Below are positions 37,017 to 50,205 of a DNA stretch of 64,000 nt, in pieces. The stretch is from Escherichia phage BF15: the sequence record MW822007.1; one strand, written 5' to 3'. Numbering within the stretch: position 1 is the stretch's first letter; the number at the start of each line of letters is the position of its first letter. Made by a program: the position numbers and the translations under genes. The notes below the pieces were generated by a model. That model was not told the origin of the DNA. It saw only the letters and a program-made list of their open reading frames with translations, and did no database searches.

Positions 37017-40000
37017 ATGGCCGAGATTAAAAGAAAGTTCAGAGCAGAAGACGGTCTGGACGCAGGTGGCGATAAAATAATCAACGTAGCTTTAGCTGAT
37101 CGTACCGTAGGAACTGACGGTGTTAACGTTGATTACTTAATTCAAGAAAACACAGTTCAACAATACGATCCAACTCGTGGATATTTAAAAGATTTTGTAA
37201 TCATTTATGATAACCGCTTTTGGGCTGCTATAAATGATATTCCAAAACCGGCAGGAGCTTTTAATAGCGTACGCTGGAGAGCATTACGTACTGATGCTAA
37301 TTGGACAACCGTTTCATCAGGACCTTATCAATTAAAGTCAGGCGAATCAATTTCAGTTGATACTGCAGCTGGTAATGACATTACATTTACTTTACCATCT
37401 TCCCCAATTGATGGAGATACTATCGTTCTCCAAGACATTGGAGGAAAACCTGGTGTTAACCAAGTTTTAATTACAGCTCCGGTGCAAAGCATTGTAAATT
37501 TTAGAGGTCAGCAAGTACGATCAGTACTAATGACTCATCCAAAATCGCAGATAGTTTTAATTTTTAGTAATCGTCTGTGGCAAATGTATGTTGCTGATTA
37601 TAGCAGAGAAGCTGTAGTTGTGACGCCGGCAAGTCTTTATCAAGCGCAATCTAACGATTTTATCGTGCGCAGATTTACTTCAGCCGCGGCGATTAATATT
37701 AAACTTCCGAGATTTGCTAATCATGGCGATATTATTAATTTCGTCGATTTGGACAAATTAAATCCACTTTATCATACAATTGTCACAACATACGATGAAA
37801 CGACATCAGTACAAGAAGATGGAACTCATTCTATTGAAGGACGTACATCGATTGATGGTTTCTTGATGTATGATGATAATGAAAAATTGTGGAGATTGTT
37901 TGACGGGGATAGTAAAGCACGTTTACGTATTATAACAACTAATTCAAATATTCGTCCAAATGAAGAAGTTATGGTATTTGGTGCGAATAACGGAACAACT
38001 CAAGCAATTGAACTTCAGCTTCCAACCGATATTTCTATTGGTGATACTGTTAAAATTTCCATGAATTACATGAGAAAAGGCCAAACAGTTAAAATCAAAG
38101 CTGCCGGTGAAGATAAAATTGCTTCTTCAGTTCAATTGCTGCAATTCCCAAAACGTTCAGAATATCCGCCTGAAACTAAATGGGTGACTGTTCAAGAATT
38201 AGTTTTTAACGGCGAAACCAATTATGTTCCAGTTTTACAGCTTGCTTATATAGAAGATTCTGATGGAAAATACTGGGTGGTGCAGCAAAACGTGCCAACA
38301 GTTGAAAGAGTTGATTCTTTAAATGATTCTACTAGAGCAAGATTAGGCGTAATTGCTTTAGCTACACAAGCTCAAGCAAATGCTGATTTAGAAAATTCTC
38401 CGCAAAAAGAATTAGCAATTACACCAGAAACATTAGCTAACCGTACTGCCACAGAAACTCGTAGAGGTATCGCAAGAATAGCAACTACTGCCCAAGTGAA
38501 CCAGGATACTACATTCTCTTTTGCTGATGATATTATCATCACTCCTAAAAAGCTGAATGAAAGAACTGCCACAGAAACTCGTAGAGGTGTTGCTGAAATT
38601 GCTACACAGCAAGAAACTAATGCAGGTACTGATGATGCTACAATCATCACTCCTAAAAAGCTTCAAGCTCGTCAAGGTTCTGAATCATTATCTGGTATTG
38701 TAACCTTTGTATCTACCGCAGGAGCTACTCCAGCTTCTAGTCGTGAATTAAATGGTACAAATGTTTATAATAAAAACACTAATAATTTAGTTGTTTCGCC
38801 TAAAGCTTTGGATCAGTATAAAGCTACTCCAACACAACAAGGTGCAGTAATTTTAGCAGTTGAAAGTGAAGTAATTGCTGGACAAAGCCAAGAAGGATGG
38901 GCAAATGCGGTTGTAACGCCAGAAACGCTACATAAAAAGACATCAACTGATGGAAGAATTGGTTTAATTGAAATTGCTACGCAAAGTGAAGTTAATACAG
39001 GAACTGACTATACACGTGCAGTCACTCCTAAAACTTTAAATGACCGTAGAGCAACTGAAAGTTTAAGTGGTATAGCTGAAATTGCGACACAAGTTGAATT
39101 CGACGCAGGCGTCGACGATACTCGTATCTCTACACCATTAAAAATTAAAACCAGATTTAATAGTACTGATCGTACTTCTGTTGTTGCTCTATCTGGATTA
39201 GTTGAATCAGGAACTCTCTGGGACCATTATACCCTTAATATTCTTGAAGCAAATGAGACACAACGTGGTACACTTCGTGTAGCTACACAGGTCGAAGCTG
39301 CTGCAGGAACATTAGATAATGTTTTAATAACTCCTAAAAAGCTTTTAGGTACTAAATCTACTGAAGCGCAAGAAGGTGTTATTAAAGTTGCAACTCAGTC
39401 TGAAACTGTGACTGGAACATCAGCAAATACTGCTGTATCTCCAAAAAATTTAAAATGGATTGCGCAGAGTGAACCTACTTGGGCAGCGACTACTGCGATA
39501 AGGGGCTTTGTTAAAACTTCATCTGGTTCAATTACGTTCGTTGGTAATGATACAGTCGGTTCTACTCAAGATTTAGAACTGTATGAGAAAAATAGTTATG
39601 CAGTATCACCATATGAATTAAACCGTGTATTAGCAAATTATCTGCCGTTAAAAGCAAAAGCTGTAGATAGTAATTTATTGGATGGTCTAGATTCATCTCA
39701 GTTCATTCGTAGGGATATTGCACAGACTGTTAATGGTTCACTAACCTTAACCCAACAAACGAATCTGAGTGCCCCTCTTGTATCATCTAGTACTGCTACG
39801 TTTGGTGGATCAGTTACGGCAAATAGTGTACTAACTATTTCTAATACTGGAACAGAAACTCATCTGATTTTTGAGAAAGGACCTCAAACTGGAACTAACC
39901 AAGCACAGACGGTGACTATTAGAGTGTGGGGTAATCAATTTAGTGGGGAATCAGACACAACACGTTCTACTGTATTTGAAGTTGGTGATGAAACATCTAA

Positions 40001-40886
40001 TCACTTTTATTCTCAACGTGATAAAGCTGGAAATATAACATTTAATATCAATGGTACAGTAACACCTATAAATGTTAATGCTTCAGGAACATTGAATGCA
40101 AATGGTGTAGCAACATTTGGTAATTCAGTCACTGCAACTGGTGAAATTATTTCTCGAAGCGCAAATGCTTTCCGTGCTATTAACGGAAATTATGGTTTCA
40201 TTGTTCGCAATGACGGGTCAGTAACGAATTTTATGCTTACTGCATCGGGTGATCAGACTGGCGGATTTAATGGATTGCGTCCTTTAGCTATTAATAATGC
40301 ATCTGGCCAAGTAACGATTGGTGAAAGCTTAATCATTGCCAAAGGTGCTACTATAAATTCAGGCGGTTTGACTGTTAACTCGAGAATTCGTTCTCAGGGC
40401 ACTAAAACATCTGATTTATACACTCGCGCACCAACATCTGATACAGTAGGATTCTGGTCAATCGATATTAACGATTCAGCCACTTATAACCAGTTCCCTG
40501 GTTATTTTAAAATGGTTGAAAAAACTAATGAAGTGACTGGACTTCCATACTTAGAACGTGGCGAAGAAGTTAAATCTCCTGGTACACTGACCCAGTTTGG
40601 TAACACACTTGATTCGCTTTACCAAGATTGGATTACTTATCCAACAACACCAGAAGCACGTACCACTCGTTGGACACGCACATGGCAGAAAACCAAAAAC
40701 TCTTGGTCAAGTTTTGTTCAGGTATTTGATGGAGGTAACCCTCCTCAGCCATCTGATATTGGTGCTTTACCATCTGATAATGCTATAATGGGGAATCTTA
40801 CTATTCGTGATTTCTTACGAATTGGTAATGTTCGCATTGTTCCTGACCCAGTGAATAAAACGGTTAAATTTGAATGGGTTGAATAA
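37017..40886 (+). CDS. 34: Long tail fibre proximal subunit gp34
   Basis: 1289 aa as in T4; MAEIKRKFRAEDGLDAGGDKIINVALADR... Confidence 0.95.
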   Translation: MAEIKRKFRAEDGLDAGGDKIINVALADRTVGTDGVNVDYLIQENTVQQYDPTRGYLKDFVIIYDNRFWAAINDIPKPAGAFNSVRWRALRTDANWTTVSSGPYQLKSGESISVDTAAGNDITFTLPSSPIDGDTIVLQDIGGKPGVNQVLITAPVQSIVNFRGQQVRSVLMTHPKSQIVLIFSNRLWQMYVADYSREAVVVTPASLYQAQSNDFIVRRFTSAAAINIKLPRFANHGDIINFVDLDKLNPLYHTIVTTYDETTSVQEDGTHSIEGRTSIDGFLMYDDNEKLWRLFDGDSKARLRIITTNSNIRPNEEVMVFGANNGTTQAIELQLPTDISIGDTVKISMNYMRKGQTVKIKAAGEDKIASSVQLLQFPKRSEYPPETKWVTVQELVFNGETNYVPVLQLAYIEDSDGKYWVVQQNVPTVERVDSLNDSTRARLGVIALATQAQANADLENSPQKELAITPETLANRTATETRRGIARIATTAQVNQDTTFSFADDIIITPKKLNERTATETRRGVAEIATQQETNAGTDDATIITPKKLQARQGSESLSGIVTFVSTAGATPASSRELNGTNVYNKNTNNLVVSPKALDQYKATPTQQGAVILAVESEVIAGQSQEGWANAVVTPETLHKKTSTDGRIGLIEIATQSEVNTGTDYTRAVTPKTLNDRRATESLSGIAEIATQVEFDAGVDDTRISTPLKIKTRFNSTDRTSVVALSGLVESGTLWDHYTLNILEANETQRGTLRVATQVEAAAGTLDNVLITPKKLLGTKSTEAQEGVIKVATQSETVTGTSANTAVSPKNLKWIAQSEPTWAATTAIRGFVKTSSGSITFVGNDTVGSTQDLELYEKNSYAVSPYELNRVLANYLPLKAKAVDSNLLDGLDSSQFIRRDIAQTVNGSLTLTQQTNLSAPLVSSSTATFGGSVTANSVLTISNTGTETHLIFEKGPQTGTNQAQTVTIRVWGNQFSGESDTTRSTVFEVGDETSNHFYSQRDKAGNITFNINGTVTPINVNASGTLNANGVATFGNSVTATGEIISRSANAFRAINGNYGFIVRNDGSVTNFMLTASGDQTGGFNGLRPLAINNASGQVTIGESLIIAKGATINSGGLTVNSRIRSQGTKTSDLYTRAPTSDTVGFWSIDINDSATYNQFPGYFKMVEKTNEVTGLPYLERGEEVKSPGTLTQFGNTLDSLYQDWITYPTTPEARTTRWTRTWQKTKNSWSSFVQVFDGGNPPQPSDIGALPSDNAIMGNLTIRDFLRIGNVRIVPDPVNKTVKFEWVE

Positions 40887-40894
40887 GAGGTATT

Positions 40895-42013
40895 ATGGAA
40901 AAATTTATGGCAGAGTTTGGACAAGGATATGTCCAAACGCCATTTTTATCGGAAAGTAATTCAGTAAGATACAAAATAAGTATAGCGGGTTCTTGCCCGC
41001 TTTCTACTGCAGAAGGACCATACGTTAAATTTCAGGATAATCCTGTAGGAAGTCAAACATTTAGCGCAGGCCTTCATTTAAGAGTTTTTGACCCTTCCAC
41101 AGGAGCATTAGTTGATAGTAAGTCATATGCTTTTTCGACTTCAAATGATACAACATCTGCCGCTTTTGTTAGTTTCATGAATTCTTTGACGAATAATCGA
41201 ATTGTTGCTATATTAACTAACGGAAAGGTTAATTTTCCTCCTGAAGTAGCATCTTGGCTAAGAGCCGCGGGAACGTCTGCTTTTCCATCTGACTCTGTAT
41301 TGTCAAGATTCGACGTATCATATGCTGCTTTTTATACTTCTTCTAAAAGAGCTATCGCATTAGAGCATGTTAAATTAAGTAATAGAAAAAGCACAGATGA
41401 TTATCAAACTGTTTTAGATGTTGTATTTGACAGTTTAGAAGACGTCGGAGCTACCGGGTTTCCAAGAAGAACATATGAAAGCGTTGAGCAGTTTATGTCA
41501 GCGGTTGGTGGAACTAATAACGAAATTGCACGTTTACCAACTTCATCCGCGATAAGTAAATTATCTGATTATAATTTAATTCCTGGCGATGTTCTTTATC
41601 TTAAAGCACAGTTATATGCTGATGCCGATTTACTTGCGCTTGGAACTACAAATATATCTATCCGTTTTTATGATGAATCGAATGGATATATTTCTTCAAC
41701 ACATGCTGAGTTTACTGGACAAGCTGGGTCATGGGAATTAAAGGAAGATTATGTAGTTATTCCAGAAAACGCAGTAGGATTTACGATATATGCACAAAGA
41801 ACTGCTCAAGCTGGTCAAGGCGGCATGAGAAATTTAAGCTTTTCTGAAGTATCAAGAAATGGTGGAATTTCAAAACCTGCTGAATTTGGCGTCAATGGTA
41901 TTCGAGTTAATTATGTCTGTGAATCTGCTTCACCTCCGGATATAATGGTACTTCCTACGCAAGCATCGTCTAAAACTGGTAAAGTGTTTGGACAAGAATT
42001 TAGAGAAGTTTAA
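40895..42013 (+). CDS. 35: Long tail fibre hinge protein gp35
   Basis: 372 aa as in T4; synteny. Confidence 0.9.
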   Translation: MEKFMAEFGQGYVQTPFLSESNSVRYKISIAGSCPLSTAEGPYVKFQDNPVGSQTFSAGLHLRVFDPSTGALVDSKSYAFSTSNDTTSAAFVSFMNSLTNNRIVAILTNGKVNFPPEVASWLRAAGTSAFPSDSVLSRFDVSYAAFYTSSKRAIALEHVKLSNRKSTDDYQTVLDVVFDSLEDVGATGFPRRTYESVEQFMSAVGGTNNEIARLPTSSAISKLSDYNLIPGDVLYLKAQLYADADLLALGTTNISIRFYDESNGYISSTHAEFTGQAGSWELKEDYVVIPENAVGFTIYAQRTAQAGQGGMRNLSFSEVSRNGGISKPAEFGVNGIRVNYVCESASPPDIMVLPTQASSKTGKVFGQEFREV

Positions 42014-42017
42014 ATTG

Positions 42018-42044
42018 AGGGAGCCTTCGGGTTCCCTTTTTCTT
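42018..42044 (+). terminator. Hairpin plus U-run after gene 35
   Basis: GGGAGCC-TTCG-GGTTCCC followed by TTTTTCTTT. Confidence 0.55.
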
Positions 42045-42052
42045 TATAAATA
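42045..42052 (+). promoter_or_regulatory. Late promoter (TATAAATA) for gene 36
   Basis: Exact TATAAATA 24 nt upstream of the gene 36 ATG. Confidence 0.65.
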
Positions 42053-42075
42053 CTATTAAAATAAAGGGGCATACA

Positions 42076-42732
42076 ATGGCTGATTTAAAAGTAGGTTCAA
42101 CAACTGGAGGCTCTGTCATTTGGCATCAAGGAAATTTTCCATTGAATCCAGCCGGTGACGATGTACTCTATAAATCATTTAAAATATATTCAGAATACAA
42201 TAAACCACAAGCTGCTGATAACGATTTCGTTTCTAAAGCTAATGGTGGTACTTATTTAAATAGAGTAATTTTTAATAATGGAATAACGATTCCATTAGCA
42301 AGTAATTCTGGAAATGGTATATATCCTGGTAATGATGATGGAGCAACATTTGATACTACAAATATGGATATTGTTTCGTGGTATGGTATTGGTTTTAAAT
42401 CATCACAAGGTTCAGCAGACCGAACTGTTGTAATTAACACTCGAAATGGAGATATTAGCTCAAAGGGCGTAATTGAAGCATCACAAATCCGTGTAACTTC
42501 GTTATCACCAGTAAATAATTATGACCTTACACGGAAAGATTATGTTGATGGAGCAATAAATATTGTTACAGCAAACGCAAACTCTAGGGTATTACGCTCT
42601 GGAGACACTATGACAGGAAATTTAACTGCGCCAAACCTTTTTTCACAGAATCCCGCATCTCAACCTTCACATGTTCCACGATTTGACCAAATCGTGATTA
42701 AGGATTCTGTTCAAGATTTCGGCTATTATTAA
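42076..42732 (+). CDS. 36: Long tail fibre distal connector gp36
   Basis: 218 aa; synteny. Confidence 0.9.
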   Translation: MADLKVGSTTGGSVIWHQGNFPLNPAGDDVLYKSFKIYSEYNKPQAADNDFVSKANGGTYLNRVIFNNGITIPLASNSGNGIYPGNDDGATFDTTNMDIVSWYGIGFKSSQGSADRTVVINTRNGDISSKGVIEASQIRVTSLSPVNNYDLTRKDYVDGAINIVTANANSRVLRSGDTMTGNLTAPNLFSQNPASQPSHVPRFDQIVIKDSVQDFGYY

Positions 42733-42740
42733 GAGGACTT

Positions 42741-45700
42741 ATGGCTACTTTAAAACAAATACAATTTAAAAGAAGCAAAACTGCAGGAGCACGTCCTGCC
42801 GCTTCAGTATTAGCCGAAGGTGAATTGGCTATAAACTTAAAAGACCGTGTACTTTTTACTAAAGATGACCAAGGAAATATTATCGATCTGGGTTTTGCTA
42901 AAGGCGGTAGTATTGACGGGAATGTTATTCATACAGGCAATTATAACCAAACTGGCGATTATACTTTAAATGGCACCTTCACTCAGACTGGTAATTTTAA
43001 TTTAACTGGTATTGCTCGAGTAACTCGCGATATTATTGCCGCTGGGCAGATTATGACTGAAGGCGGAGAACTTATTACAAAAAGTTCAGGTACAGCGCAT
43101 GTTCGTTTTTTCGATAACAATAGTCGCGAACGTGGAATCATTTATGCCCCGGCTAATGATGGTTTAACTACACAAGTACTTAATATCAGGGTTCAAGACT
43201 ACGCCGCTGGTGATGAAAGCACCTATGCATTTTCGGGCAGTGGCCTATTTACTTCACCTGAAGTATCAGCATGGAAATCTATTTCGTCTCCACAAATTCT
43301 GACCGATAAAGTTATTACAAATGGGAAGAAGACAGGCGATTATGATATATCTTCATTAGCAAATAATAATTCTGATACAGATAAAAACTATTTGCGCATT
43401 GTACGTACCGACCCAGCGGCCGCAATGCTCCATGAAATTTGCGAAAATAACGGCATCAGTTGGTATTCCGGTTCAACCCCTACTGATTACATGTTGTCTT
43501 TTGCTTATTCAGGTGGTTTTCAAGCTGGGCATTCGATTGCAGTAGGTATGGAATCAGGGCCTATAACATATTCAGCCTTAGGTAAAGGTTCTATTGCTCT
43601 TGGCGATAATGACACCGGGCTAAAATGGCATCAGGATGGATATTTTTTTACGGTAAGCAACGGTACAAAAACTTTCCTTTCTGGTCCGGCGGAAACCACT
43701 AGCCTTAGAAAAATGGTTATGGGTTATTCTGTAAATGGTACTGATTTGACTACTCCTCCAACTGAAAATTATGCTCTTGCAACTGTAGTTACTTACCATG
43801 ATAATAACGCGTATGGTGACGGTCAGACTCTTTTAGGATATTATCAAGGTGGTAATTACCACCACTATTTCCGTGGTAAAGGCACTACAAATATTAACAC
43901 TGCAGGCGGATTGTTAGTTACTCCAGGCAATATTGACGTTATTGGTGGTTCTGTTAATATCGATGGTAGAAATAATTCTTCTACGCTGATGTTTAGAGGT
44001 AACACAACAGGATACAGCTCAGTTGATAATATGGATATTAAAGTTTGGGGTAATACTTTTGTTGATCCAAGCGAAGGCACCCGTAAAAATATCATGGAAA
44101 TTTCTGATGCAACTAGTTGGATGAGCTATATTCAAAGACTTACAACAGGTGAAGTAGAAATGAACGTTAACGGTTCATTTGAATCATCTGGTGTTACTGC
44201 TGGAAATAGAGGAGTTCACACAACAGGCGAAATTTCATCTGGAGCAGTGAATGCGCTTCGCATTTGGAACGCAGATTATGGAGCTATTTTTAGACGTTCA
44301 GAAGGTAGTCTTCATATTATTCCAACTGCTTATGGTGAAGGTAAACATGGTGATATCGGTCCACTTCGCCCGTTTAGTATGGCTTTAGATACTGGTAAAG
44401 TTACTATTCCAGATTTACAATCAAGTTACAATACGTTTGCAGCAAACGGTTATATTAAATTTACTGGTCACGGCGCAGGCGCGGGCGGTTATGATATTCA
44501 ATATGTTCAAGCAGCTCCTGTTTTCCAAGAAATCGATGATGATGCTATAAGCAAATATTATCCTATTGTTAAACAGAAGTTTTTAAACGGTAAAGCCGTT
44601 TGGTCTTTAGGTACTGAAATTAATTCGGGTACATTTGTTTTACACCATATCAAAGAAGATGGATCACAAGGACATACATCTCGTTTTAATCAAGACGGTA
44701 CGGTTAATTTCCCTGATAATGTTCAGGTTGGTGGTGGTGAAGCTACTATTGCTCGCAACGGTAACATCTGGTCTGATATCTGGAAAACGTTTACTTCAGC
44801 AGGAGACACCACAAATATTCGCGATGCAATAGCTACCCGTGTTTCTAAAGAAGGCGACACGATGACCGGCACTCTTTGGATTAATAAAGATGCTGCTGGA
44901 ATAGTTCTTAATCCTCCTTTGGCCAGTGATTCATCATTTATTCGTTCCGATACGGCCGGGGTAAATAATTGGTATATTGGTAAAGGCGGTGCCGACAATG
45001 GTCTAGGTTTTTACAGTTATGTTACACAAGGCGGTGTATATATAACAAATAACGGAGAAATATCACTTTCTCCTCAAGGCCAAGGAACATTTAATTTTAA
45101 TAGAGACCGCCTCCATATAAACGGTACACAATGGACCGCACACCAGGGAGGTGGTTGGGGAAATCAATGGAATCAAGAAGCACCGGTATTTGTAGATTTT
45201 GGTAATGTTGGTAATGATAGTTATTATCCTATTATTAAAGGAAAATCCGGTATTACTAATGAAGGATACGTATCTGGTGTAGATTTTGGTATGCGACGCA
45301 TTACTAATACATGGGCACAAGGTATTATTCGTGTAGGTAATCAGGAAAATGGTTATGACCCACAAGCTGTATATGAATTCCATCATAACGGTACTTTTTA
45401 TGCTCCAAGCTTACTTAAGAGCAGTAGAGTATCAGCTGGTGGTGGTGACCCAGCATGGGGCAGTCCTTGTATTGTATTAGGTGACAATGATACCGGATTT
45501 CTTTGGGAAGCAGATGGTATTTTCAACGCATATGCAAACGGCCAAGGCGTATTCAGTTTTAGAGCTGGTCTCGCACAAACGTTCGGTAACGTTAACTTCC
45601 ACTGTAACGCCGGTATGTATGTTCGTGATAACATTGATGTTAACGATGTTTATATCCGTTCTGATATTCGTTGTAAGTCAGAAATTAAGCTTATTAAGAA

Positions 45701-45980
45701 CGCTCAAGAGAAATCTAAACTCTTAGGCGGCTATACTTATCTGCTTAAAAACCCTGTTACAGACGAAGTTAAACCGTCTGCAGGTTTAATTGCTCAGGAA
45801 GTTCAAGAAGTATTACCTGAACTTGTTTCTGAAGATAAAGAGACCGGCTTACTTCGTTTAAACTATAACGGTATTATCGGTTTAAATACTGCTACTATCA
45901 ACGAGCATACTGACGAAATCAAGGAATTGAAATCTGAAATTGCTGAGTTGAAAGCATTAATTAAATCATTGATAAAATAA
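42741..45980 (+). CDS. 37: Long tail fibre distal subunit gp37 with C-terminal intramolecular chaperone domain
   Basis: 1079 aa; the C-terminal ~106 aa from SDIRCKSEIK...GLIAQEVQEVLPELV... plus terminal coiled coil resemble S74-type auto-cleaving chaperone domains. Confidence 0.9.
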   Translation: MATLKQIQFKRSKTAGARPAASVLAEGELAINLKDRVLFTKDDQGNIIDLGFAKGGSIDGNVIHTGNYNQTGDYTLNGTFTQTGNFNLTGIARVTRDIIAAGQIMTEGGELITKSSGTAHVRFFDNNSRERGIIYAPANDGLTTQVLNIRVQDYAAGDESTYAFSGSGLFTSPEVSAWKSISSPQILTDKVITNGKKTGDYDISSLANNNSDTDKNYLRIVRTDPAAAMLHEICENNGISWYSGSTPTDYMLSFAYSGGFQAGHSIAVGMESGPITYSALGKGSIALGDNDTGLKWHQDGYFFTVSNGTKTFLSGPAETTSLRKMVMGYSVNGTDLTTPPTENYALATVVTYHDNNAYGDGQTLLGYYQGGNYHHYFRGKGTTNINTAGGLLVTPGNIDVIGGSVNIDGRNNSSTLMFRGNTTGYSSVDNMDIKVWGNTFVDPSEGTRKNIMEISDATSWMSYIQRLTTGEVEMNVNGSFESSGVTAGNRGVHTTGEISSGAVNALRIWNADYGAIFRRSEGSLHIIPTAYGEGKHGDIGPLRPFSMALDTGKVTIPDLQSSYNTFAANGYIKFTGHGAGAGGYDIQYVQAAPVFQEIDDDAISKYYPIVKQKFLNGKAVWSLGTEINSGTFVLHHIKEDGSQGHTSRFNQDGTVNFPDNVQVGGGEATIARNGNIWSDIWKTFTSAGDTTNIRDAIATRVSKEGDTMTGTLWINKDAAGIVLNPPLASDSSFIRSDTAGVNNWYIGKGGADNGLGFYSYVTQGGVYITNNGEISLSPQGQGTFNFNRDRLHINGTQWTAHQGGGWGNQWNQEAPVFVDFGNVGNDSYYPIIKGKSGITNEGYVSGVDFGMRRITNTWAQGIIRVGNQENGYDPQAVYEFHHNGTFYAPSLLKSSRVSAGGGDPAWGSPCIVLGDNDTGFLWEADGIFNAYANGQGVFSFRAGLAQTFGNVNFHCNAGMYVRDNIDVNDVYIRSDIRCKSEIKLIKNAQEKSKLLGGYTYLLKNPVTDEVKPSAGLIAQEVQEVLPELVSEDKETGLLRLNYNGIIGLNTATINEHTDEIKELKSEIAELKALIKSLIK

Positions 45981-46010
45981 TAAAAGGGCCTTCGGGCCCT
46001 GGAGGTTTAT

Positions 46011-46790
46011 ATGGCAGTAGTAGGAATCCCTGGTTGGATTGGGACTTCAGCCGTCGCTGAAACAGGCCAACGTTGGATGACAGCAGCTTCTAGAGAATTG
46101 CGTCTTGGTAACCCATCTTGGATGTCCCAATTCGCAGGCCGCTCAAGAGAAATTATTCACACACTTGGAGCAGACCATAACTTCAATGGTCAATGGTTCC
46201 GAGATAGATGTTTTGAGGCAGGTAGTGCACCTATAGTGTTTAATATTACAGGTGATTTAGTATCATATTCTAAAGATGTTCCTTTATTTTTCATGTATGG
46301 AGATACACCGAATGAATATGTTCAGTTGAATATACACGGCGTAACGATGTATGGACGTGGCGGTAATGGCGGTAGCAATAGTCCTGGCTCAGCTGGAGGT
46401 CATTGTATTCAAAACGATATTGGTGGGAGACTAAGAATTAATAATGGTGGAGCTATTGCAGGCGGCGGTGGCGGCGGTGGCGGCGGTAACAGGGGTAGAC
46501 TAGTATTTGGTGGCGGCGGTGGTCGTCCATTTGGTGCTGGTGGGTCTTCCTCTCATATGAGTGCTGGTGCAACCGCTGGCACCATTTACGCTCCGGGTGC
46601 AGGATCTGTCGGTGAGGGGTCTCTTAGTGCATATACAGGCGGGTCTGGTGGTGAAGTAGGTTCCGCGGGAGGTAGATGTAATACTCACGGTGCCGGTACA
46701 GAATATAACGGCGGAGCTGCTGGTTATGCTGTTATAGGGTCTGCTCCAACGTGGATAAATGTTGGAGCAATATATGGTCCAAGAGTATAA
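46011..46790 (+). CDS. 38: Receptor-recognising adhesin gp38 (T2-type, glycine-rich)
   Basis: 259 aa; multiple poly-Gly blocks ([21 protein letters not shown]) alternating with variable segments. Confidence 0.85.
46461..46487 (+). repeat. Coding trinucleotide repeat (GGCGGCGGT)x3 inside gene 38
   Basis: Direct tandem repeat encoding a Gly9 run. Confidence 0.7.
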
Positions 46791-46820
46791 TTTGAATAAA
46801 TATCCTTAAAAGGAGGGTCT

Positions 46821-47477
46821 ATGGCAGCACCTAGAATATCATTTTCGCCCTCTGATATTCTGTTTGGTGTTCTAGATCGCTTGTTCAAAGATAACGCTAC
46901 CGGGAAAGTTCTTGCTTCCCGGGTAGCTGTCGTAATTCTTTTATTTATGATGGCGATTGTTTGGTATAGGGGAGATAGTTTCTTTGAGTACTATAAGCAA
47001 TCAAAGTATGAAACATACAGTGAAATTATTGAAAAGGAAAGAAATGCACGCTTTGAATCTGTCGCCCTGGAACAACTCCAGATAGTTCATATATCATCTG
47101 AGGCAGACTTTAGTGCGGTGTATTCTTTCCGCCCTAAAAACTTAAACTATTTTGTTGATATTATAGCATACGAAGGAAAATTACCTTCAACAATAAGTGA
47201 AAAATCACTTGGAGGATATCCTGTTGATAAAACTATGGATGAATATACAGTTCATTTAAATGGACGTCATTATTATTCCAACTCAAAATTTGCTTTTTTA
47301 CCAACTAAAAAGCCTACTCCCGAAATAAACTACATGTACAGTTGTCCATATTTTAATTTGGATAATATCTATGCTGGAACGATAACCATGTACTGGTATA
47401 GAAATGATCATATAAGTAATGACCGCCTTGAATCAATATGTTCTCAGGCGGCCAGAATATTAGGAAGGGCTAAATAA
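46821..47477 (+). CDS. t: Holin T
   Basis: 218 aa as in T4; single N-terminal TM segment. Confidence 0.9.
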   Translation: MAAPRISFSPSDILFGVLDRLFKDNATGKVLASRVAVVILLFMMAIVWYRGDSFFEYYKQSKYETYSEIIEKERNARFESVALEQLQIVHISSEADFSAVYSFRPKNLNYFVDIIAYEGKLPSTISEKSLGGYPVDKTMDEYTVHLNGRHYYSNSKFAFLPTKKPTPEINYMYSCPYFNLDNIYAGTITMYWYRNDHISNDRLESICSQAARILGRAK

Positions 47478-47750
47478 TTATTTGTTTGTATACATCTCTA
47501 GATATCGATATACACCCTCAAAACCCTCGTTGAATTCGTCGATGAGGGTTTTCTTATCTTCTTGGGTTAATTCAGAAACAATTTTACGGAATGAATTCTG
47601 ATTTAACTTTCTACCTTCATGCGTTACTCCAATCTCATTCAGAAATGCAATAAAATTAGCACGATTCTCAACAATATCTTCTCTGGAAAATTTAATCAAA
47701 ATAGACGCAACAGTAATAATTTCACGAACTGTATCAATGTTTTTATTCAT
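47478..47750 (-). CDS. asiA: Anti-sigma70 factor AsiA
   Basis: 90 aa; MNKNIDTVREIITVASILIKFSREDIVENRANFIAFLNEIG... Confidence 0.9.
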   Translation of the reverse strand: MNKNIDTVREIITVASILIKFSREDIVENRANFIAFLNEIGVTHEGRKLNQNSFRKIVSELTQEDKKTLIDEFNEGFEGVYRYLEMYTNK

Positions 47751-47782
47751 TAACTATACCACTCAATTAGTTGACTTTATTA

Positions 47783-47812
47783 TAATATCATCAGACACTT
47801 GATTTGTAAACT
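47783..47812 (-). promoter_or_regulatory. T4-type early promoter for asiA
   Basis: Minus strand GTTTACAAATCAAGTGTCTGATGATATTAT. Confidence 0.6.
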
Positions 47813-47911
47813 GGTCTGTGTTATTTTCTTCAAAAATTTTTTCTACGAATTCTTTGAACGACTCACGTTCCTGAGCTACATTATGCTCGATTACCTTTTC
47901 AAGATTATGAC

Positions 47912-48190
47912 TCATTCGAAATAATCTTCAATTTCGTAATCATGGACATAAATCATTATAGCTTTTAATACATCATCAATACTTTTTCCTGGAGCTGGAA
48001 TTACGTAAAAATACCCCGCCTTTGAGTTATCTTTATAAGTTCCAACCAAGAAATCATTATTCTCAAGATGTAGTTCTTCAACTAATTCATCGACAATTGA
48101 GTGGTATAAATTTGGTAGAAACTTATATAGCTTTTCTAGAATATCAATTTTGATTGTATATTGAACCACAGATTGAGAATCAATAATCAT
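47912..48190 (-). CDS. arn: Probable Arn anti-restriction protein (acidic, 92 aa)
   Basis: 92 aa as in T4 Arn; acidic; between motA and asiA. Confidence 0.6.
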   Translation of the reverse strand: MIIDSQSVVQYTIKIDILEKLYKFLPNLYHSIVDELVEELHLENNDFLVGTYKDNSKAGYFYVIPAPGKSIDDVLKAIMIYVHDYEIEDYFE

Positions 48191-48273
48191 AGACCTTCCC
48201 CTTATGTTTCTGTTTGCGATTAGATTCTTTAAACGCTTTCTTCTTATCTTTATGAACAGAAGCTTTATTAAAA

Positions 48274-48492
48274 TTATGTTTTGCGACTAAATTGTTCATA
48301 GTGCTGAATTACCTCTCTTAAACATTTGCATGTGAATGAAAACTTTTTAGCTACACCACATTCAAATATATGTTCTCTTAAATCACGTGTATCAGTATAT
48401 CCCATCTCAACAATAAAATGCCGTATTAGATTTTTATCTTTATCGTTGAGGGAATTAAAATAATCGGATTTTGAATTAATTTCCCTGGCCAA
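48274..48492 (-). CDS. Hypothetical protein
   Basis: 72-aa track ORF. Confidence 0.5.
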   Translation of the reverse strand: MAREINSKSDYFNSLNDKDKNLIRHFIVEMGYTDTRDLREHIFECGVAKKFSFTCKCLREVIQHYEQFSRKT

Positions 48493-48772
48493 ATTGAATC
48501 GCCTTCAGTTGACGTTTTAGTTCTTTTATCATTTCTTCGTTCATCGCAATATAAAGATCACGTAAAGCAGGTTTTAGCATTCCATTTACTGGAGAACTAA
48601 ATGGACATACATAATCTTTTCCTACAAGCTTTTTAGTTAATTCCATGTCACAAAACTGAAATGCTGGTTCATTGGCATAAATTCCCCAATTGGTTGACAT
48701 CATTTTATTGGCATATTCCAATGCCTGGATTTGATTAGTAATTCCATCAATTTGAAACTTTTTAATATTCAT
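48476..48772 (-). CDS. Hypothetical protein
   Basis: 98-aa track ORF. Confidence 0.5.
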   Translation of the reverse strand: MNIKKFQIDGITNQIQALEYANKMMSTNWGIYANEPAFQFCDMELTKKLVGKDYVCPFSSPVNGMLKPALRDLYIAMNEEMIKELKRQLKAIQFGQGN

Positions 48773-49233
48773 TAGTAAAGGTCCTCAGAGTAAAGTTCTT
48801 TTTCACTACCACCACGTTCAATACGTACTTGTCCAGCGTAAGTTGCAATAATCATTGCTTCTTCACGTGTCCAATAATTACTATATTGGTCAATAAACCC
48901 TTGATCATCATCACAAACTTGCTGAGTAACTAATTGAGGTTTAACTACATCTAAAACTGCTGCCATATCTTTAGAATAATGACGAGCACCTGGAATAACA
49001 AGAGTTCGTCCATCTTTTAATTTAAAACGGTTGGCTGCGCAAACAATCCGTCGTTGGTACTTTTGGTTTTCATCCCAGTATGCGGTTTGCCAACAAATTT
49101 CCGGAACTTCTGCAAGAATATCTTCTTCTGTGCATTTATAACCATGTGCTTTAAATTTTTGAACAAGACTTTCTGGAGTTTCACGAGATAAAGGAACATT
49201 CAGCATTTTTAAACGATTAATAAATGGATTCAT
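48772..49233 (-). CDS. Hypothetical protein
   Basis: 153-aa track ORF. Confidence 0.55.
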
Positions 49234-49559
49234 TTAAACCATCCTTTAATACGTTGCCACAAAGTTTTCTGTTGAGCTTTGTTAACACCAATTGAGCGAA
49301 TAACCGGTTGAGATTCCTGGAATTCTTTATAATCGGCAAGGTAAATTTCGTAAGCTGAATCTGTAAAGGAACTTATAGCTGCCATGAAATTATTGCGAAT
49401 GCCTACTGGAGCATCTTTACTTTCACGAATAATCATGTATTTACCAGTCTTAATCTTTACGATAGTTCCAAGATAAGCTCCATGATACCAGATGTCCCAC
49501 CCCTCTTGAGTGGGTTCTGCACAACGACGAAGTTCATTGACAATTTCTAACTTGTTCAT
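49230..49559 (-). CDS. Hypothetical protein
   Basis: 109-aa track ORF. Confidence 0.55.
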
Positions 49560-49569
49560 TATTTATTCC

Positions 49570-50205
49570 TCATAGTTCAGATGCTACAGTGATTACAGCT
49601 TCAATGTTTTCTGCTGAGCGTTTAATGTCAAGATACACATTACCGTTTTTAGCGATTTTACATGACATTCCGATGTCAGTAAATTTCTGAATATGATGTT
49701 CCATCATTTTGTATCCAAAAATTCGCATATTTCCATTGTTGTTAATTTCAAAATTACGAATTCCGTGAGTGCGTTTTTCTAAAATAGCGAGATAGTTACT
49801 GCGATAAGTTTCAACCTTTTTAAGAACAAATCCATTTTCATCTAAAAGTTTTAACATGAAGTCTTTATCTTCTTCCATATCAGAAGTAATCTCACGAGCT
49901 TTACGAGTTGCTCGTTTTTTCAGCAGTTCCGGAGCGTTTTCCTGTGCGTATAAAGTTGCTGCATTTGAAATAATATCCTGAGCTTCACCAGTAATGATTA
50001 ATCCATCACCAGATTTCTCCACCAGGCCTTTTTTAATCAATACCCCAATATTACTATTAACTACTGCGTTACCTAAATCTGGATGCACCTCACGAACTTC
50101 TGCAGCTGTAATGAAATCTTTCTTAGCAATGGTAATTAAAATCGCAGCAGTTTTTTCATTCAGAACATCGTTAGAAGCTTTGATGATGTAAGTTACTTTA
50201 GACAT
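49570..50205 (-). CDS. motA: Middle transcription activator MotA
   Basis: 211 aa as in T4; MSKVTYIIKASNDVLNEKTAAILITIAKKDF... Confidence 0.9.
   Translation of the reverse strand: MSKVTYIIKASNDVLNEKTAAILITIAKKDFITAAEVREVHPDLGNAVVNSNIGVLIKKGLVEKSGDGLIITGEAQDIISNAATLYAQENAPELLKKRATRKAREITSDMEEDKDFMLKLLDENGFVLKKVETYRSNYLAILEKRTHGIRNFEINNNGNMRIFGYKMMEHHIQKFTDIGMSCKIAKNGNVYLDIKRSAENIEAVITVASEL

Follow-up and report, generated by a model that had tools for sequence, protein, structure and literature searches.

Gene 38 of Escherichia phage BF15: a T2-type gp38 adhesin of mosaic make-up with OmpA as its predicted receptor

The product of gene 38 (gp38) is the main host-range determinant in most T-even-like phages, and the ORF at 46011..46790 on the plus strand of Escherichia phage BF15 raises three questions: whether it encodes such an adhesin or a tail-fibre assembly chaperone of the T4 type, which receptor the adhesin would recognise, and whether a perfect repeat within the gene is used to vary it. 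The characterisation of BF15, which puts the phage forward for a cocktail against ESBL/AmpC-producing E. coli, mentions neither gp38 nor a receptor (PMC10059673). We analysed a window of 64,000 nucleotides from the BF15 record (MW822007.1), and put at roughly 0.9 the probability of our main reading, that this ORF is gene 38 (g38) of BF15 (Tequatrovirus), that it encodes a gp38 adhesin of the T2/T6 type with a predicted OmpA type 2 specificity, and that it is a natural mosaic. The protein is a textbook T2-type adhesin and nothing new in kind; since gp38 is already named as an adhesin in the BF15 record, the gene is an ordinary one. What the analysis adds to the known annotation is the OmpA type 2 prediction, the exact boundaries of the mosaic, and a mostly negative view of slippage at the repeat.

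The ORF runs from an ATG to a TAA stop (46788-46790) and its 259-aa product is 100% identical to QXN75949.1, which carries the GenBank name "long-tail fiber adhesin" (Escherichia phage BF15); the ORFs upstream, for gp35, gp36 and gp37, match the consecutive BF15 proteins QXN75946-QXN75948 exactly. The gene order is gp35 (40895-42013), gp36 (42076-42732), gp37 (42741-45980), gp38 and holin t (46821-47477), followed on the opposite strand by asiA and motA. A sequence-only reading of this DNA had taken the 259-aa ORF, with its several glycine blocks, for a T2-type glycine-rich adhesin. The three blocks that it quoted occur verbatim in the translation, and the family assignment is borne out by two Pfam profiles, both far above their cut-offs of 25 bits: GP38 (PF05268) over residues 47-259 (E=1.3e-69, 234.8 bits) and Gp38_N (PF21721) over residues 1-42 (E=5.6e-21, 74.7 bits). 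By sequence, the only PDB relatives are likewise gp38 proteins, namely 9V85 (E=1.1e-79), an sfGFP-fused receptor-binding domain of PP01 gp38 (PMC12892980), and 6F45_D (E=3.2e-53), which is S16 gp38 within the gp37-gp38 tip complex.

Five glycine motifs (GRMs) and four variable segments (HVSs) of gp38 were defined by Trojet et al. 2011 (PMC3157838). BF15 gp38 has all of these in the conserved order, the five GRMs separating the four HVSs after a conserved N-terminal domain, as seen in alignments of 11 and of 66 family members whose invariant columns lie in the GRMs and whose variable blocks lie between them. The first part of the protein, recognised from the Gp38_N match and the N-terminal subtypes, is an attachment (adapter) domain of the JS98/Bp7 subtype that would dock on the gp37 tip (residues 1-48, 46011..46154). 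Between it and the glycine-rich part lies a conserved core (residues 49-114, 46155..46352), delimited from the alignments and an AlphaFold2 model; the corresponding region of gp38 is termed the beta-helix domain in PMC12032242. The remaining segments were delimited in the alignments, all on the plus strand. GRM1 (GRGGNGG, residues 115-121, 46353..46373) is followed by the HVS1 region, nearly invariant within the BF15 gp38 clade (residues 122-150, 46374..46460), and by GRM2, a run of nine glycines (Gly9, residues 151-159, 46461..46487). HVS2 (NRGRLVF, residues 160-166, 46488..46508) is the same in FL12, FL20, kvi, Ac3 and G2133, whereas Tsx-type adhesins carry YYSPFSQMRLTF at this position. GRM3 (residues 167-178, 46509..46544) contains R172, which in type 2 adhesins is predicted to contact OmpA, and leads into HVS3 (residues 179-208, 46545..46634), which is identical to that of FL12 and G2133. 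GRM4 (residues 209-221, 46635..46673) ends in R, HVS4 (residues 222-233, 46674..46709) is again that of FL12, and GRM5 together with a conserved C-terminal strand completes the protein (residues 234-259, 46710..46787).

The sequence-only reading had also set the protein apart from the T4-type chaperones, and BLASTP against T4 gp38 (taken from NC_000866) agrees, giving E=0.98 over 16 residues; on this result the chaperone identity was dropped. That BF15 gp38 is a tail-fibre assembly chaperone acting outside the virion would fit the gene name and the position between g37 and t, but these are all that suggest it apart from the label 'distal long tail fiber assembly catalyst' carried, wrongly, by several GenBank relatives. 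T4 gp38 matches no Pfam family, in contrast to the GP38 and Gp38_N matches of BF15 gp38, whose predicted fold is moreover that of the solved adhesins; and BF15 gp37 brings an intramolecular chaperone of its own. We regard a T4-type chaperone as vanishingly improbable here.

This partner protein, identified by ORF, Pfam and exact protein match, is the distal long-tail-fibre subunit (g37, 42741..45980, plus strand, 1079 aa), which forms the trimeric fibre bearing gp38. Its intramolecular chaperone is a Peptidase_S74 domain, found by Pfam at residues 974-1029, and the C-terminal portion in question starts from Ser974 in SDIRCK (45660..45977, plus strand). The last base of g37 is 45980, and g38 follows from 46011. 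The domain is present also in gp37 of ST2 and EV240 and absent from T4 gp37. In the T2-type arrangement, as worked out for T2 and S16, gp37 folds unaided and undergoes processing, after which gp38 caps it; the BF15 gene context fits this, the self-cleaving chaperone domain of gp37 being typical of T2-type fibres. For BF15 gp37, cleavage is predicted to remove the C-terminal 106 residues and so to expose the tip for gp38.

Adhesin identity is also favoured by structure prediction. An AlphaFold2 model of BF15 gp38, built on the 66-sequence family alignment, has a mean pLDDT of 87.6, with low values confined to the first ~40 residues. Foldseek comparison of the model with the PDB gave significant matches to 9V85 (TM 0.88 on target, rmsd 2.2 A) and 6F45_D (TM 0.79) and to no other entry, the next match having E=2.5. 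A polyglycine-II sandwich fold like that of 6F45 and 9V85 is predicted on this basis, and gp38 would be expected to serve as the adhesin at the fibre tip of the virion, needed for adsorption.

Trojet et al. 2011 (PMC3157838) described co-variation of the gp38 N-terminus and the gp37 C-terminus as a lock-and-key fit. BF15 gp38 agrees with ST2 at every one of its first 42 residues (42/42), and Bp7 and PHB12 share the N-terminal sequence as printed; over the same stretch 30-32 of 42 residues are shared with T6-type adhesins and 32/42 with EV240, and the subtype differs from that of FL12 (T2 subtype) and from that of G2133 and Ac3 (Ac3 subtype). The C-terminal part of BF15 gp37 (residues 933-1079) is 95-98% identical to ST2 and about 25% to EV240. 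Thus both modules are common to ST2 and both differ in EV240, and the N-terminal subtype of BF15 gp38 matches the C-terminal subtype of its gp37.

The gp37-gp38 boundary is also where the mosaic becomes visible in the DNA. Comparison with PHB12, G2133 and FL12 places a recombination junction zone at 46043..46192 (plus strand). Up to this zone, the segment 45500-46042 has 3 mismatches to PHB12 (99.4% identity), a Mosigvirus by record taxonomy; beyond it, 46193-46900 is nearly identical to G2133 (about 98% at the DNA level) and FL12 (about 97%). The two halves also differ in their neighbours in the phage collection: 383 records match the receptor-binding half, with G2133 (98.1%) and then FL12 (96.9%) at the top, and only 43 match the g37-3'/g38-5' half, including PHB12 along with JS98, PhAPEC2 and VR26, which we take to be Mosigvirus as well. 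By these comparisons BF15 g38 is a recombinant of a Mosigvirus-like g37-3'/g38-5' module and a G2133/FL12-like receptor-binding module, joined within codons ~11-60, and the g37-3'/g38-5' block has been passed on as a single unit.

Seen from the other side of the junction, one OmpA-binding cassette is combined with four or more adapter subtypes. Three genera are involved: Tequatrovirus (BF15, G2133, FL12), Krischvirus (FL20, kvi) and, by way of the adapter, Mosigvirus-like fibres. On a modest reading, the OmpA cassette may be naturally portable across gp38 adapters with a fixed junction near residue 48, a portability that is seen in sequences and known in principle; if true, nature itself would supply a design rule by which T-even phages can be retargeted. 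The exchange of gp38 domains as modules has already been described (Trojet 2011, PMC3157838; Lutz 2025, PMC12032242), and indeed since 1998 (Tetart 1998, as cited in PMC3157838), and BF15 g38 is one more case of it rather than a new phenomenon.

Which receptor the cassette recognises should be written in the variable segments, which the sequence-only reading had expected to set specificity; adhesins with the same receptor have HVS sets in common (Trojet et al. 2011, PMC3157838). An alignment of BF15 gp38 to adhesins whose receptor is known, including those of T2, T6 and the OmpA adhesins (M1 standing for K3/Ox2), gave identity counts for each HVS. The segments follow receptor class, as expected, and the best fit is the OmpA-dependent FL12 set. 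BF15 and FL12 gp38 are identical in HVS1-4 and in all GRMs, and after residue 48 they differ only by A73T, A245T and I249Q; G2133 gp38 is 100% identical to BF15 over residues 49-259. Agreement is also close with Ac3 (HVS2 7/7, HVS3 30/31, HVS4 9/12), with FL20 and kvi (7/7, 25/30 and 11/12), and with EV240 (6/7, 29/30 and 10/12; 95.7% over the receptor-binding part), while for the Tsx types (T6, FL15, Paracelsus) the counts are 3/7, 14-16/30 and 7-8/12. The 90% protein cluster of BF15 gp38 takes in FL12, EV240, NBG2, G2133 and Ac3, and the predicted OmpA contacts of type 2 adhesins, R172, A189 and A253, are all present in BF15.

Several members of this group have experimental receptor assignments. 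FL12, FL18 and FL20 lost plating on an ompA deletion mutant, and form a 'type 2' of narrow host range, accepting OmpA loop variants 1, 3 and 4 only (PMC12032242). For EV240, ompA and LPS-heptose genes were the top RB-TnSeq hits, with ompA first, and its gp38 from HVS2 onward turns the Tsx phage CM8 to OmpA (bioRxiv 10.64898/2026.04.02.716166); we equate the preprint's 'EV240' with GenBank T4_ev240 (LR597657), by name only. Because all four HVSs are identical to those of the OmpA-dependent FL12, OmpA is predicted as the BF15 receptor, and we consider it very likely that the receptor is this protein and not Tsx, FadL or OmpF. By the same comparison the BF15 adhesin is predicted to be of the narrow type 2 kind, like FL12, FL18 and FL20, accepting only loop variants 1, 3 and 4.

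Two other OmpA-binding groups were considered for BF15 and ruled out: the classical group, since HVS3 and HVS4 share 8/30 and 2/12 residues with M1, and OmpA 'type 1' (RB32/AV119/FL08), with 49-51% identity in the receptor-binding part. As HVS2-4 are unlike M1 and the receptor-binding part is unlike RB32/AV119, BF15 falls into a third OmpA-binding set, distinct from both; OmpA is thus the target of three or more unrelated HVS sets, with BF15 in that of FL12.

The BF15 adapter differs from that of FL12, and residue 249 is I in BF15 and Q in FL12. This residue is polymorphic across the gp38 family (Q in 104, I in 39, G in 14 and T in 10).

Such differences could in principle redirect the adhesin. 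A receptor other than OmpA, for instance Tsx, or OmpA together with a second obligatory receptor, might follow from the different N-terminal adapter, from the different gp37 scaffold, or from the differences with FL12 at A245 and I249. Small changes can indeed suffice: a single HVS-loop substitution, Q206L, switched a receptor from OmpF to OmpW (cited literature), and PST, only 3 HVS residues off T6, gains OmpA dependence, Trojet et al. having suggested an influence of the N-terminal part on recognition (PMC3157838). However, position 249 varies among proven OmpA-dependent type 2 binders themselves (Q in FL12 and FL20, T in FL18), and the same module binds OmpA on both a T2-type adapter (FL12) and T6-type adapters (FL20, EV240). 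A switch to Tsx in particular has to contend with Tsx-type segments that are far off (HVS2 3/7, HVS3 14-16/30), and any switch with the identity of all four HVSs to FL12. No receptor prediction for BF15 was found in the accessible part of the supplements of the receptor-prediction preprint. We judge a receptor other than OmpA very unlikely, and retain OmpA in what follows.

The remaining question concerns GRM2, whose Gly9 run had been described as encoded by a perfect repeat and as prone to slippage. The repeat is real: at exactly 46461..46487 Tandem Repeats Finder detects 3.0 copies of a 9-nt unit, consensus GGCGGCGGT, with 100% matches. The array is in frame with g38 (46461-46011 = 450), and residues 151-159, which it specifies, are all Gly. 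Given the Gly codon usage of g38 outside the run, the chance of a perfect 3-codon x3 repeat arising from nine Gly codons is ~0.003, and GGC is enriched, at 6/9 codons in the run versus 11/54 Gly codons outside it; together these make local homogenisation of the Gly9 codons plausible. The (GGCGGCGGT)x3 periodicity is common to BF15, G2133 and ST2, whereas nine glycines are specified by (GGC)8GGT in FL12 and by other synonymous codon strings in EV240, FL20, kvi, FL15 and Paracelsus. Since any poly-Gly tract is a GGN repeat and relatives use other codons, the perfect 9-nt periodicity is specific to an allele and not conserved.

What is conserved is the length. The tract was readable in 79 of 84 members of six close clusters, and numbered nine glycines in 76 of these, eight in one, seven in two, and never more than nine. 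Among 120 family representatives, run length ranged from 5 to 9, never above, with four lacking a run of at least 5 glycines. Two 258-aa members (P0156, P0204) have a shorter Gly run. The 257-aa relatives, candidates for further tract-length variants, were ruled out as such, because in those aligned or inspected the 2-residue difference lies within the N-terminal adapter and not in the Gly run. In IMG/VR the 4-copy repeat occurs at 37 loci, none of them a gp38 homologue; scans there for flanked 3-copy and 2-copy alleles gave 0 matches, and are uninformative on length variants because the BF15 allele itself is absent from that collection.

These lengths bear on whether (GGCGGCGGT)x3/Gly9 is a contingency locus, at which in-frame slippage would yield adhesins of different length and so alter adsorption or host range. 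The perfect 9-nt x3 repeat, the GGC enrichment in the tract, seen also in the FL12 string at the same site, and a repeat_region annotated there in the kvi record would all suit such a locus, and 3 of the 79 close relatives do have 7 or 8 glycines. Yet these three variants come from draft assemblies and are possibly errors, and no close relative has the 6 or 12 Gly that loss or gain of one 9-nt unit would give. Nine glycines are kept in 76/79 even though six or more different synonymous strings encode them, no more than nine occur in about 200 family proteins, and the 4-copy version is in no gp38 homologue of IMG/VR. GRM2 is moreover structural, its deletion in T6 having given no viable phage (PMC3157838). 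A contingency locus is therefore highly improbable. A weaker form, in which the GGC-rich GRM2 tract is a slippage or gene-conversion hot spot giving rare in-frame length variants, is also quite improbable, although if true such variants would bear on fibre function or host range. Of the earlier description, then, the perfect repeat stands, and the slippage finds little backing in a tract so constant in length and never longer than nine. The Gly9 tract is best described as a structural element whose length is constrained; there may be slippage, with no sign that it is used.

The sequence around g38 offers a few expression signals. A Shine-Dalgarno sequence, GGAGG, can be read 5 nt upstream of the ATG (46001..46005, plus strand). 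Between the g37 stop and this ribosome-binding site lies a C(UUCG)G tetraloop hairpin (AGGGCC-UUCG-GGCCCU, -12.3 kcal/mol; 45985..46000, plus strand), which is not followed by a T-run on the plus strand and has a terminator-like score on the minus strand only; G2133 carries a putative-terminator annotation at the equivalent site. A scan for sigma-70 promoters and terminators around g38 found nothing over background other than this hairpin, and an Rfam scan of 40000-50000 found no RNA family. Just upstream of g36 is the T4 late-promoter consensus TATAAATA (42045..42052, plus strand), a motif not enriched in the window and picked out by its position only; it is likely the promoter of a g36-g37-g38 late transcript. 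Two minus-strand ORFs within g38 (46500-46688 and 46724-46888) were set aside as lacking support and overlapping a strongly conserved coding frame.

Combining what was seen in BF15 with established work on T2, T6, S16 and PP01, we can propose how the adhesin would be made and used. The g36-g37-g38 genes would probably be expressed late. Trimerisation of gp37 would be aided by its own Peptidase_S74 chaperone, a domain detected here, with a putative cut then following at Ser974. One gp38 monomer would attach to the exposed gp37 tip through its ~48-residue N-terminal domain, in keeping with the observed co-variation of that domain with the gp37 C-terminus. Its GRMs would pack as a polyglycine-II sandwich, the predicted fold that was matched to 9V85 and 6F45, displaying the HVSs as distal loops, and these loops would bind an outer-membrane protein, predicted to be OmpA. 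The type 2 prediction bears on cocktail design and on the host range to be expected of BF15; it matters for design because resistance would be expected through loss of ompA or through variation of its loops.

Comparison with named systems places BF15 gp38 as follows. (i) T4 gp38 (NP_049864.1), the tail-fibre assembly chaperone, resembles it only in name and in place between g37 and t: the T4 protein has 183 aa, no glycine motifs and an unrelated sequence, and acts outside the virion, and T4 gp37 bears the receptor-binding tip itself and has no Peptidase_S74 domain, unlike BF15 gp37. (ii) The gp38 proteins of S16 (6F45) and PP01 (9V85) share family and fold with BF15 gp38, an attachment domain followed by a polyglycine-II sandwich with distal loops, at 45% and 67% identity respectively, but the loop (HVS) sequences differ, and their receptor is OmpC where that of BF15 gp38 is predicted to be OmpA. 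(iii) T6 (Tsx), T2 (FadL/OmpF), M1 (OmpA) and RB32/AV119/FL08 (OmpA 'type 1') have the GRM/HVS architecture and gene position of BF15 gp38 and differ from it in the variable segments or in the receptor-binding part as a whole. T6 gp38 is 78% identical overall, with 3/7, 14/30 and 7/12 residues shared in HVS2-4; for T2 these counts fall to 0/7, 7/30 and 1/12; M1 is 73% identical overall and 69% in the receptor-binding part, with 3/7 shared in HVS2 and the low HVS3 and HVS4 counts given above. (iv) G2133 gp38 (vB_EcoM_G2133, QBO60987.1) has the closest receptor-binding DNA, with the same (GGCGGCGGT)x3 repeat, joined to an Ac3-type adapter that is 2 aa shorter than that of BF15 and about 57% identical to it. 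(v) FL12 gp38 (XAO16660.1), of 259 aa like that of BF15, pairs nearly the same receptor-binding DNA with 48 N-terminal residues of the T2 subtype, where BF15 has the JS98/Bp7 subtype, and with a g37 3' end unrelated to that of BF15 (20-30 mismatches per 50 nt).

Within the first 100 nt of the g38 recombination junction zone (46043-46142), in the segment encoding part of the N-terminal domain, BF15 differs from ST2 at 19 nucleotides and from PHB12 also at 19, while the encoded residues are identical in all three phages; the differences are therefore all synonymous. In the DNA upstream of this segment there are nearly no differences between BF15 and PHB12. The segment is a pocket of older divergence, held under strong purifying selection and lying at the recombination junction. 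The 171-kb T4-like phage ST2 (OM982647.1) carries the taxonomy line Guernseyvirinae; Kagunavirus, at odds with its content.

The neighboring gp37 (42741-45980) is a singleton when about 15 billion proteins are clustered at 90%, and is itself a mosaic. Its residues 1-180, 345-584 and 933-1079 have 96-100% identity to ST2, and residues 717-932 only 38-56%. The likeness of BF15 to PHB12 is also patchy in the DNA upstream of 45500, at 0-29 mismatches per 100 nt.

The repeat encoding the Gly9 run of gp38 (46461-46487) has a counterpart in phage kvi, where a repeat_region is annotated at the same position of g38 (MN850615.1 91749-91774; 752-777 in our nucleotide record L008), so the repeat had been noticed earlier by annotators. 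Three close gp38 relatives (P0156, P0204 and one more) have a run of 8 or 7 Gly rather than 9, with flanks otherwise unchanged. The shorter runs may be real alleles, or they may come from misassembly of a low-complexity tract; the P0156 and P0204 sequences come from draft or WGS assemblies. A different peculiarity is seen in the gp38 of Bp7 as deposited (P0063, 263 aa), which has an N-terminus of the BF15 type and a divergent C-terminus: over the final ~45 residues (…GGEDGIITYLDLAVVLLVERYSEV…) it no longer follows the family consensus, and it is without the terminal GxIYG motif that is present in the closely similar PHB12 protein. Such an ending suggests that the record contains a frameshift, located within or past the glycine-rich region GRM4 and arising either from sequencing error or from a real slippage event.

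In the Krischvirus phages FL20, FL15 and kvi, the gene after g38 is a small hypothetical one and not holin t, in line with the displaced position that has been reported for g38 in Krischvirus (bioRxiv 10.64898/2026.04.02.716166). As for gp35, the proximal hinge connector (40895-42013), its residues 59-127 match the Pfam ILEI profile (interleukin-like EMT inducer / PANDER domain, PF15711, E=6.8e-9), and some of its database relatives carry names taken from that domain.

A C(UUCG)G tetraloop hairpin (AGGGCC-UUCG-GGCCCU; 45985-46000, + strand) sits after the stop codon of g37 and ahead of the Shine-Dalgarno of g38. On the + strand an A-run comes before it and no T-run comes after it; its score is terminator-like on the minus strand only. 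The hairpin may serve in RNA stability, partial termination or translational coupling. In G2133, a putative terminator is annotated at the matching site.
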